Shown one piece after another: positions 1-6,232 of a stretch of DNA of 45,072 bases (within the stretch, counting starts at the first letter, position 1; each line of letters starts with the position of its first letter). Below the pieces are notes generated by a model. It was given only the letters and a program-made list of their open reading frames with translations. It was not told where the DNA came from and searched no databases. This DNA comes from Candidatus Bathyarchaeota archaeon. GTDB lineage: Archaea > Thermoproteota > Bathyarchaeia > TCS64 > B23. The stretch is taken from the NCBI GenBank assembly GCA_021161045.1, contig JAGHBJ010000063.1, positions 1-45,072 on the forward strand, read 5' to 3'. Made by a program: the position numbers and the translations under genes.

Positions 1-113
1 GCTTTGAAGGTGTTGCCTCGCTTGATGACTTTCAATTCTCTTTGTGAGATTCCCAGAAGTTGTTGGCGCACTTCGGATGCACCTTATAGCTTTCAATTCT
101 CTTTGTGAGATTC
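1..113 (-). CRISPR. CRISPR repeat-spacer units in minus orientation: repeats at 29-52 and 90-113, a full 37-nt spacer at 53-89, and a spacer at 1-28 truncated by the window edge
   Basis: The 24-nt repeat CTTTCAATTCTCTTTGTGAGATTC is identical at 29-52 and 90-113. Its reverse complement GAATCTCACAAAGAGAATTGAAAG ends in ATTGAAAG, the 8-nt crRNA tag known for crenarchaeal Cas6-processed repeats. The transcribed sense of these units is therefore the minus strand. Confidence 0.8.
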
Positions 114-230
114 ATGGCCTACTCACAAAGAGAATTGAAAGCTATAAGGTGCATCCGAAGTGCGCCAACAACTTCTGGGAATCTCACAAAGAGAATTGAA
201 AGTCATCAAGCGAGGCAACACCTTCAAAGC
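1..230. repeat. Perfect inverted repeat (palindrome): arm 1-109 is the exact reverse complement of arm 122-230, with a 12-nt centre at 110-121 (ATTCATGGCCTA)
   Basis: Base-by-base reverse complementation of 1-109 reproduces 122-230 with 109/109 matches. The left arm is cut by the window edge, so the true arm length is at least 109 bp. Confidence 0.95.
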
Positions 231-264
231 GTTGAATGGGGAATCTCACAAAGAGAGTTGAAGG
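122..264 (+). CRISPR. CRISPR array end in plus orientation. Repeats lie at 122-141 (5'-truncated, 20 of 24 nt), 179-202 (perfect) and 241-264 (degenerate terminal repeat). Spacers lie at 142-178 (37 nt) and 203-240 (38 nt).
   Basis: GAATCTCACAAAGAGAATTGAAAG is at 179-202. GAATCTCACAAAGAGAGTTGAAGG at 241-264 has 2 mismatches, which is typical of a trailer-end repeat. Spacer lengths of 37-38 nt are typical for such arrays. No leader-like sequence precedes the first, truncated repeat. Confidence 0.85.
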
Positions 265-497
265 GGTCGACCCGTATCAGGCGAGGAGGACGTCCCTCTC
301 AACCACGAATCCTTAGGGAACTCCCTGAACATCTCAAAAACGGGAGAGAAGCGATGATGAAAGTCGAGACCCCCAGAAGGGTCTCACTGAGATAAAAATG
401 GACCTATTGTTAGGTGATGCCACTCAAGTCGATGTATGGATCGTCTTCGAGGTTTGGAAAGCTTTTAATGAGACCCTAGGGAGTTTTATCCCCGTCG

Positions 498-674
498 GTG
501 TTGAGGTTGGAGGAGGAGAGGCCTAGAGGCCCGGTCTATGAATGTCTCCGCTGCGGCAGTCGAGTCGCCTACTCAGAGTTGGAGCGCTACGTCTCATTTC
601 GATGTCCCCAGTGTGGTTATCGCATCTTCAGGAAGGTTAGGCCTCCGGTTGTCAAGAGGGTGAAGGCGAGATGA
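498..674 (+). CDS. rpoP: DNA-directed RNA polymerase subunit P (Rpo12, Rpb12 homolog), a small zinc-ribbon protein
   Basis: This ORF is absent from the ORF track because it is under 60 codons with a non-ATG start. The frame ending at TGA 672-674 reads ...RPRGPVYECLRCGSRVAYSELERYVSFRCPQCGYRIFRKVRPPVVKRVKAR. It has two CxxC pairs followed by a basic tail, as in RpoP. An in-frame TAG at 477-479 bounds the 5' end. The start is GTG 498, TTG 501 or TTG 507. A TATA-like CTTTTAAT at 462-469 lies about 30 nt upstream. The stop overlaps the next ATG (ATGA at 671-674). Confidence 0.8.
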   Translation: MLRLEEERPRGPVYECLRCGSRVAYSELERYVSFRCPQCGYRIFRKVRPPVVKRVKAR

Positions 675-1249
675 CGTTGGAGGCTGAGAGCCTAGAGGAG
701 CGTCGGGCAGCCCTCATCATAAAGTATAGGGGCCTAGAGGTTGAGAATGTTGAGCGAGAGGGAAACCGGATCTACTACTATCTGAGAAAGAATGGCGATC
801 GCTATGTCATACTCTGCGTCCTAGGCGAGAAGACCATCGGCATCTCCTATATCAGAGACCTGAAGGAGAAGGTGGAGGAGCTAGGCGCCGTGAGGGGAAT
901 CCTCATCGGCGAGGGGCACTACACATACTCCGCCCGAAGCACAGTTGAGAAGCTCAACGAGGAGGCTGAACGTGAGGGGCGTGGACGCCTCATAGAGCTT
1001 ATACCCCCAAGCCTCCCAGCCTTCGACATCTTCCAGCACGAGCTGGTTCCAATACATGAGATCCTCTCAGAGGAGGAGAAGAGGGAGGTGCTGGAGCGCT
1101 ATCACGTGAAGCCCTATCAACTCCCCTGGATGAAGGCCTCAGACCCCGTGGCTATAATCCTAGGGGCGGAGCCTGGAGACATCATCAGGATAAGGAGTAG
1201 AAGCGAGACCGCCGGCGAATACATCTCATATAGATACGTGGTTGAGTAG
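671..1249 (+). CDS. rpoH: RNA polymerase subunit H (Rpo5) with a roughly 117-aa N-terminal extension, giving an Rpb5-like two-domain architecture
   Basis: C-terminal residues 118-192 (FDIFQHELVPIHEILSEEEKREVLERYHVKPYQLPWMKASDPVAIILGAEPGDIIRIRSRSETAGEYISYRYVVE) are a clear RpoH / Rpb5 C-terminal domain. The N-terminal 117 aa are in the same uninterrupted frame, with no internal ATG/GTG/TTG before the RpoH core. Confidence 0.9.
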   Translation: MTLEAESLEERRAALIIKYRGLEVENVEREGNRIYYYLRKNGDRYVILCVLGEKTIGISYIRDLKEKVEELGAVRGILIGEGHYTYSARSTVEKLNEEAEREGRGRLIELIPPSLPAFDIFQHELVPIHEILSEEEKREVLERYHVKPYQLPWMKASDPVAIILGAEPGDIIRIRSRSETAGEYISYRYVVE

Positions 1250-1457
1250 CATAGTTTTAAATGTGGATGTAAGTTTACATATTGAATTGTCTAAGAGACT
1301 CCTAGATCGAATCCTAAACGCCGCCAGAGACTTAAGAGAAGCCTTCAATAAAGCCTACAGGCGTGGAGGAGTCTGGTGGATCATCTTCACAGCCTCCATG
1401 ATCATCATCGCCCTAGACTTCATCCTCCTCGCCTTCATGCTGCTCAGATTCCTTTAA
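1242..1457 (+). CDS. Hypothetical small protein with a C-terminal transmembrane helix (WWIIFTASMIIIALDFILLAFMLL)
   Basis: This is an ORF-track entry with a TTG start overlapping the rpoH stop. Alternative in-frame starts are GTG 1263 and TTG 1287, downstream of the AT-rich element 1254-1261. No family was recognised. It overlaps the 3' end of the convergent ORF 1413-1670. Confidence 0.3.
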   Translation: MSSIVLNVDVSLHIELSKRLLDRILNAARDLREAFNKAYRRGGVWWIIFTASMIIIALDFILLAFMLLRFL

Positions 1458-1670
1458 GCCGCCTCTAAGCTCGCTGAGTATGACGAGGGCCTCCCCCAGG
1501 GGTATGTCAAGCCTCTTCGAGAGCTCCTCAGCCGTTATCTCGGGATCCTCCAGGAGGATGTGATCCCTGACGTAAGCCTTATGATACCTATACATCGGCA
1601 GTCGGTGAACCACCTCCACGAGGATTAGCCAGAGGGGGCTTCGCTCCAGATCGTCGTCCAAGCGGCTCAC
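1413..1670 (-). CDS. Hypothetical 85-aa protein with a possible small helix-turn-helix (ITAEELSKRLDIPLGEALVILSELR) and an acidic tail
   Basis: The start overlaps the stop of the upstream ORF 1667-2179 by 4 nt, implying translational coupling. No family was recognised. Confidence 0.5.
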   Translation of the reverse strand: MSRLDDDLERSPLWLILVEVVHRLPMYRYHKAYVRDHILLEDPEITAEELSKRLDIPLGEALVILSELRGGLKESEQHEGEEDEV

Positions 1671-5255: not shown

Positions 5256-6232
5256 TGTCGACGGCTATAACCCTCAAGGAGATGGTGAAGAAGCCGGATC
5301 TACTCGCATCTGGACATAGGCTATGCGCCGGATGCGCTGAGCCCATCATCGCCAGATTGGTGCTTAAAGCCAGCAGAGGCGCCATCATCGCTACTACGGC
5401 CACCGGCTGCCTAGAGGTGGCGACGACGATATTCCCCTACTCGGCGTGGCGTATACCCTGGATACATACCGCCTTCGAAAACGCCGCCGCCACGGCCAGC
5501 GGGATAGAGGCGGCCTGGAGGGCGATGAGGCGTAAGGGACGTGGCCCCCTCGCCAGATATGAGACCTTAGACATCGTCGCCTTCGCGGGGGATGGCGGAA
5601 CCTATGATATAGGCCTACAAGCCCTATCCGGAGCCTTGGAGAGGGGACATGACTTCACCTATGTCCTCCTCGACAATGAGGCCTACATGAATACGGGGAT
5701 CCAGCGCAGCGGAGGAACACCCTACTGCGCCTGGACGACGACAAGCCCCGCTGGAACGGTGATCCCTGGGAAGAGGGAGTGGAAGAAGCCCATCGATGAG
5801 ATCGTCATCGCCCATGAGATACCCTACACGGCGACGGTCAGCCCTGCATATCCCCTTGACCTGATGCAGAAGGCGCGGGCCGCCTTCGAGACGGAGGGGC
5901 CGGCCTTTATCCACGCCATCTCTCCCTGCTGCAGAGGCTGGAGATTCCCGCCGAACAAGACGATCGAGGTGGCTCGGCTGGCCGTGGAGACCTGCTTCTT
6001 CCCCCTCTACGAATGCCGAGTGGAGGATGGTAGACCAATCTACAAGCTGTCGCCTCCAAGCCTCGCTATAGCGAAGAGGCCTGAGCGTAAGAAGCCGGTG
6101 GAGGATTATCTGAAGATCCAGGGGCGATTCAGACATCTCTTCAGGCCTGAGAGGCGTGGAGACCTCATCGAACGCATCCAGAGATGGGTTGACCGCAGGT
6201 GGGAGATGCTTCTGGAGAAGGCAGGCCTATAA
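5255..6232 (+). CDS. porB: 2-oxoacid:ferredoxin oxidoreductase beta subunit (TPP-binding)
   Basis: GHRLCAGCAEP and GDGGTYDIGLQAL (TPP-binding motif GDGx...) are present. ATG 5255 overlaps the porA TGA at 5253-5255. The track start is GTG 5249. Confidence 0.9.
   Translation: MSTAITLKEMVKKPDLLASGHRLCAGCAEPIIARLVLKASRGAIIATTATGCLEVATTIFPYSAWRIPWIHTAFENAAATASGIEAAWRAMRRKGRGPLARYETLDIVAFAGDGGTYDIGLQALSGALERGHDFTYVLLDNEAYMNTGIQRSGGTPYCAWTTTSPAGTVIPGKREWKKPIDEIVIAHEIPYTATVSPAYPLDLMQKARAAFETEGPAFIHAISPCCRGWRFPPNKTIEVARLAVETCFFPLYECRVEDGRPIYKLSPPSLAIAKRPERKKPVEDYLKIQGRFRHLFRPERRGDLIERIQRWVDRRWEMLLEKAGL

Follow-up and report, generated by a model that had tools for sequence, protein, structure and literature searches.

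A perfect palindrome at the trailer end of a Bathyarchaeia CRISPR array is very probably a technical foldback of the contig tip

The window analyzed here, a stretch of 45,072 nt that represents an entire contig (G000:C122, 1-45072) of a Bathyarchaeia MAG (G000; 137 contigs, 1.26 Mb), opens at contig base 1 with a perfect palindrome made of CRISPR sequence. We consider it highly probable that this palindrome is a technical foldback, introduced during library preparation or assembly at the end of the contig, and not a biological structure. Four lines of evidence lead to this reading: the terminal position, the recurrence of the same symmetry at other contig termini, its absence from relatives and the existence of a leader at the syntenic site. 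The real feature would be the trailer end of an ordinary one-directional Bathyarchaeia array, which occupies a conserved position in the chromosome between the homolog of another contig of the assembly (C12) and rpoP/rpoH-like genes. Of the two alternatives put forward in the initial annotation, an amplification or assembly foldback chimera is therefore strongly supported, whereas a real recent foldback duplication is not.

A repeat search confirmed that positions 1-109 are the exact reverse complement of positions 122-230 (109 nt, 100% complementary), with an intervening stretch of 12 nt (ATTCATGGCCTA, positions 110-121), just as had been described. For single-stranded DNA, the predicted structure of 1-230 is a single hairpin without interruption (-142.9 kcal/mol), which is far beyond chance (shuffle mean -26.6, z = -33.5). 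Contig and left arm end at the same base, partway through the mirrored spacer 203-240. The features that can be discerned around the palindrome are collected in Table 1, together with the mirrored tips discussed below. With respect to the loop, the earlier claim that the junction removes 4 nt from the first repeat holds for the right-arm copy and fails for the left-arm copy, which is made complete by the ATTC at 110-113. The remainder (114-121) is most likely the reverse complement of the final 8 nt (TAGGCCAT) of the next upstream, unassembled spacer, and the chimeric join would sit somewhere within 114-122; across the junction the palindrome reads ...GAGATTCATGGCCTACTCAC....

The symmetry generates several spurious annotations. 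Matches to Rfam miRNA precursor models (MIR8007, MIR5048, mir-135 and others) reached E-values as low as 1e-20, but all stayed under the gathering scores, and they were rejected because they mirror only the perfect hairpin. Likewise, the mechanically called ORFs that run across the palindrome and array on the plus strand, at 105-395 (96 aa) and at 44-199 (51 aa), are artefacts and should not be annotated.

Table 1. Features at the start of the window and perfect inverted repeats found in the assembly
Feature	Position	Strand	Remarks
Left arm, mirror copy of 122-230	1-109	.	100% complementary; contig-terminal; read as artefactual
Mirror-copy repeats	29-52 and 90-113	-	
Loop	110-121	-	direct reading; 110-113 (ATTC) finishes repeat 90-113
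Repeat from which the foldback join has removed the initial 4 nt (GAAT)	122-141	+	real CRISPR repeat
Spacer, 37 nt	142-178	+	
Perfect 24-nt repeat	179-202	+	identical to many Bathyarchaeia array repeats
Last spacer, 38 nt	203-240	+	
Terminal degenerate repeat	241-264	+	2 mismatches; trailer end of the array
Trailer/intergenic flank	265-497	+	94% identity with same-genus G005
Zinc-ribbon ORF, 58 aa, RpoP-like	498-674	+	21 bits, under the Pfam cut-off of 24
RpoH/Rpb5 homolog, 192 aa	671-1249	+	Rpb5_C 101.9 bits; housekeeping, not cas
Mirrored tip, C122 start			arm 109 nt, loop 12 nt
Mirrored tip, C86 start	C86:1-118		arm 59 nt, loop 0 nt
Mirrored tip, C116 end	C116:7242-7359		arm 59 nt, loop 0 nt
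Mirrored tip, C90 end	C90:4149-4260		arm 54 nt, loop 4 nt
Mirrored tip, C68 end	C68:3804-3920		arm 40 nt, loop 37 nt
Mirrored tip, C109 end	C109:23035-23118		arm 40 nt, loop 4 nt
Mirrored tip, C55 start	C55:1-63		arm 27 nt, loop 9 nt

The part of the contig tip that we consider real, 122-264, contains three regularly spaced direct copies of a 24-mer (GAATCTCACAAAGAGAATTGAAAG) with a period of 61-62 nt, in line with the definition of an array as at least three such repeats. The resemblance of the intact copy at 179-202 to an established repeat family, Rfam CRISPR-DR45, is weak (29.3 bits, with a gathering score of 37). The earlier reading of this arm as a plus-sense array, with the ATTGAAAG 3' handle, a degenerate last repeat and a trailer from position 265, was borne out, and its orientation is corroborated by the relatives, in which a conserved leader precedes the repeat in the GAAT... 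sense, with the same flank beyond the final repeat. The neighbors of the array are housekeeping genes, encoding the zinc-ribbon protein, RpoH/Rpb5 and a protein of the OMP-decarboxylase family. The N-terminal part of the RpoH/Rpb5 homolog matches the Mrr_cat restriction-endonuclease fold (22.2 bits, cut-off 21), and with this part the protein is longer than the 73-position Rpb5_C domain alone. Exact searches with spacer 142-178 (metagenome, genome and viral contig collections), spacer 203-240 (viral contigs) and the junction of degenerate repeat and trailer (metagenome contigs) gave no match, so that the collections searched yielded neither an independent copy of the array end nor a protospacer.

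The most telling evidence came from the other contigs of the same assembly. The whole 1.26 Mb was scanned at every position for perfect inverted repeats with an arm of at least 20 nt and a loop of at most 40 nt, and seven were recovered, all of them flush with a contig terminus and none internal. As positions no more than 250 nt from a contig end make up around 5% of the assembly, such a distribution by chance is excluded. In an assembly-wide search the CRISPR repeat was encountered on C122 only, apart from one degenerate copy inside C117, and the other six foldbacks thus concern non-CRISPR DNA.

Three of these six ends (C86, C116 and C109) were compared with the same-genus genomes G001, G003 and G005. 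The relatives contain one copy of the sequence, with 83-97% identity as far as the fold centre, and the sole match of the terminal arm is to that same place on the opposite strand. Beyond the fold the relatives run on for at least 1.5 kb, in sequence that is unrelated to the terminal arm and agrees with it at 13-25 of 59 and 22 of 44 bases. The mirror arm is thus missing from the relatives at all three ends tested. The location of foldbacks at the ends and the single-copy nature of the sequence in relatives together imply that the assembly systematically mirrors contig tips. The fold centres of tested ends hold short natural palindromes (e.g. GCGGCCTTAAGGCCGC at C116), which are the expected sites of snap-back synthesis or of self-reverse-complement edges in an assembly graph. 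The 12-nt loop of C122 differs from C86 and C116 in this respect, since no natural inverted repeat is obvious in the middle of it. The two cases with 59-nt arms and no loop would fit a k of ~119, but a single assembler k as the determinant of arm length was rejected, as the other five (arm/loop 27/9, 40/37, 54/4, 40/4 and 109/12) fit none. Adapter strings of the Nextera, TruSeq and MGI types were searched for in the assembly and not found.

These data also bear on the possibility that the palindrome is real. In that case the part of the array next to the trailer would very recently have been duplicated in inverted (foldback) form, by fork template switching or by repair of a hairpin-capped break, and the duplication would exist in the genome as such or in some of the cells only. 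The palindrome stands, after all, perfect in the deposited assembly, and its arm of 109 nt is around twice as long as those of the other six terminal foldbacks (27-59 nt). Moreover, the terminal position alone is weak as evidence, since a true palindrome would likewise tend to end a short-read contig at this point. Nevertheless, we regard a real duplication as very unlikely, given the six additional flush-terminal foldbacks in unrelated DNA with none internal, the lack of the mirror arm in relatives at every other end compared, the ordinary organization of the homologous loci in G005 and G001 (see below), the public-run contigs shown, none of which bridges the junction, and the left arm that halts mid-spacer precisely at the contig end. 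In addition, cells do not stably maintain long perfect palindromes with short loops. A genuine palindrome would be expected to have unique flanks on both arms and a junction that recurs in independent samples; here the left arm ends with the contig, and the pieces shown from four public runs do not bridge the junction. There is a slim chance that the palindrome is real in at least part of the population, where the trailer end of the array would have been duplicated by foldback so recently that cellular nucleases had yet to remove the copy. If so, one hairpin transcript could give rise to both sense and antisense crRNA; the dsRNA/anti-crRNA scenario that had been sketched on this basis is otherwise unsupported.

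The comparison with relatives makes clear what an undisturbed version of the locus looks like. The flank of the array (230-1500) is 94% identical to G005:C127. There it comes after at least 25 identical repeats with a single orientation, and that contig in turn ends within the array. The last of these repeats, homologous to the degenerate repeat at 241-264, is perfect and abuts the same flank. The beginning of the G005 array lies on a second contig (CALEIY010000242.1, L044), on which the homolog of C12 is followed by the upstream region with the leader and the array start in the same sense, so that the two contigs together carry at least 25 plus at least 6 repeats. In G001 the complete order is found on one contig: the C12 homolog, the leader, one repeat and then the flank. 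Around 475 nt upstream of this single repeat, 94% identity begins to the first 720 nt of C12 of G000. At the same site (L003/L045, G001:C108, JAPDJB010000049.1) around 170 nt of trailer is unlike the window and the match begins at window position ~397; together with the single repeat, the altered trailer suggests a collapse or replacement of the array in that lineage.

The leader covers around 115 nt before the first repeat and is conserved in 10 loci with a mean column identity of 85% (alignment A1, 146 columns including the first repeat; L044:5228-5371, L045:2949-3092 and eight others). It contains two TATA-like boxes, CTTTATAAAG and CTTATAG, and the element GAATCCCCA-NN-AAAGGGGTCT that abuts the first repeat. 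A CCCC-N6-GGGG hairpin-like element of the Bathyarchaeia leader family adjoins the first repeat, and the leader family is common to the syntenic array and to the cas-adjacent arrays. At the syntenic site the conserved leader is found in G005, G001 and CAZEET. A copy of the leader was found neither in the window nor elsewhere in the G000 bin. However, C12 of G000 stops 474 nt before the expected position of the first repeat, and on the basis of synteny the order in G000 would be C12 (reversed), an unassembled gap holding the gene end, the leader and most of the array, and then C122. The synteny with G005 and G001 therefore indicates that the leader of G000 is unassembled, within the gap between C12 and C122, and it is not shown to be missing from the genome. 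Both the 'lack of a leader' and the 'orphan mini-array' that were reported for this stretch can be traced to the assembly gap: the former because the leader lies off the contig, the latter in view of the many repeats at the homologous locus of G005 and the further spacers with this repeat in public runs.

A third possibility is that the tip represents two real arrays that diverge from each other, or that contigs from two strains with the same last spacers were wrongly joined. In several metagenomes, related strains with this locus are found together, which makes a mis-join conceivable. Real divergent arrays, however, need leaders between them, and only 12 nt is present; the arms are identical at 109 of 109 positions; a mis-join of strains would not give reverse-complement symmetry around one point; and the same symmetry exists at six contig ends without CRISPR sequence. 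We therefore consider this possibility extremely unlikely.

Irregular array contigs are encountered in G005 as well. Remnants of Nextera transposase adapters (…AGATGTGTATAAGAGACAG / CTGTCTCTTATACACATCT…) occur at its contig ends, in L009 (G005:C127, 43611-43634) and in L044 (6191-6215). In L044 the array runs, after its sixth repeat, into around 500 nt of unrelated AT-rich sequence (5700-6190); this is probably a further case of chimeric assembly in a CRISPR array.

The public runs that contain the stretch are hydrothermal-vent and marine-sediment metagenomes. The Logan contigs of four of these runs were aligned to window positions 1-1500; being contigs and not reads, they show presence and not absence. 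The junction (110-121) was bridged by none of the pieces listed for the four runs, and the cover of parts of 101-178 consisted of repeat-level matches only (X1, X2 and X6). The best-matching run, X1, may not be the source, as it shows 3 differences from the window in 800 bases. Its flank contig stops exactly at position 179, and several different sequences precede the repeat that starts there, which points to heterogeneity in spacer content, an ordinary cause of a contig break. Further spacers of 37-40 nt were present between copies of the repeat in X1, X2 and X6, and a 2487-nt contig of X3 showed a direct, multi-repeat array leading into the flank of the window. The latter alignment contained a joint between opposite strands (29 to 122), which was discarded as support for the palindrome, as it results from the alignment of a direct array to a palindromic reference.

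The exact 24-nt repeat was recovered at 40 public loci (L010-L049), and in none of these 40 did it occur on both strands. The records with the same repeat, as well as G005 (CALEIY01), include MAGs labelled Bathyarchaeota or Bathyarchaeia. Within the same set, the repeat also appears in MAGs labelled Methanomethylicaceae, Methanodesulfokora (Korarchaeia), Marsarchaeota and 'Crenarchaeota', which would reflect either a wide horizontal spread of one CRISPR-Cas module or cross-contamination of bins with array contigs. In the genus relatives the repeat and the leader are found beside cas1, csa2 (DevR) and cas6, and the repeat thus belongs to a cas-associated family. Profile searches of the G000 bin, 97% complete by markers, gave no match for Cas1, Cas_Cas6_C or DevR; contigs with CRISPR-cas loci often miss bins. 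A 160-aa ORF on C117 (G000:C117:12726-13223; L056:1468-1965) matches CRISPR_Cas6 (PF10040, 49.9 bits). It has around half the length of the open frames of ~300 aa in relatives, adjoins the solitary degenerate repeat (GAATTTCACCTAGAGAATTGAAAG) near a PIN-domain gene, and may be a decayed cas remnant.

Taken together, the technical foldback would have arisen as follows. The genome would read, on the plus strand, from a leader through many repeat-spacer units to the spacers and degenerate last repeat of 122-264, and from there via the trailer into the rpoP/rpoH-like genes. The short-read assembly probably broke inside the population-variable array, as it did in relatives, after which the open end would have had no competing path. 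The contig would then have grown into its own reverse complement for as far as support reached, which was partway through a spacer, at what is now base 1. The extension may have been fed by a minority of inverted chimeric molecules in the library (snap-back or template-switch products, as in MDA or end repair) or may have followed a hairpin edge in the graph; the choice between the library-chimera route and the graph-traversal route is one that we can only infer. Bases 1-109 would then duplicate 122-230 without forming a second array, and bases 110-121 would preserve the true upstream sequence in reverse complement, with 4 nt of the repeat and around 8 nt of the next spacer.

The main value of the finding lies in quality control. 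Mirror-image artefacts are present at 7 of the 274 contig ends of this MAG, and such tips can yield false inverted repeats, false ORFs (e.g. 105-395) and false matches to hairpin RNAs. Bases 1-121 of C122 should be trimmed, and the other six mirrored tips should be distrusted and trimmed as well.

In comparison with known systems, the G000 bin deviates from its genus relatives in that it lacks cas1 and csa2 and has the 160-aa Cas6 fragment on C117 as its only cas6. The stretch 122-264 differs from an ordinary array in that only the last two spacers were assembled and the leader and remainder are missing. It is like the ordinary archaeal arrays with 24-nt repeats that have the ATTGAAAG end and are associated, in the genus, with I-A-like cas sets (with Cas1, Csa2/DevR and Cas6): it has the regular 61-62-nt period, unique spacers of 37-38 nt and a terminal repeat that is degenerate, its genomic position corresponds to that of the long G005 array and its repeat is identical to that of the cas-adjacent arrays of the relatives. 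For the palindrome itself there are ample technical precedents, as more than 85% of MDA chimeras have been reported to be inverted sequences (PMC1855051), hairpins that form during library preparation give rise to artefactual palindromic reads (PMC3946424), and palindromic contigs have been described as assembly errors in SPAdes assemblies and single-cell genomes (PMC9455707; bioRxiv 10.1101/2023.06.06.543983). The tip of C122 differs from the wholly palindromic contigs in that the mirrored tip concerns only 230 nt of 45 kb, and resembles the known foldback or inverted chimeras in several ways: it sits at the very terminus and mirrors its neighbouring sequence exactly, such tips have short loops or none, the structure recurs within the assembly, and it is not found in relatives.
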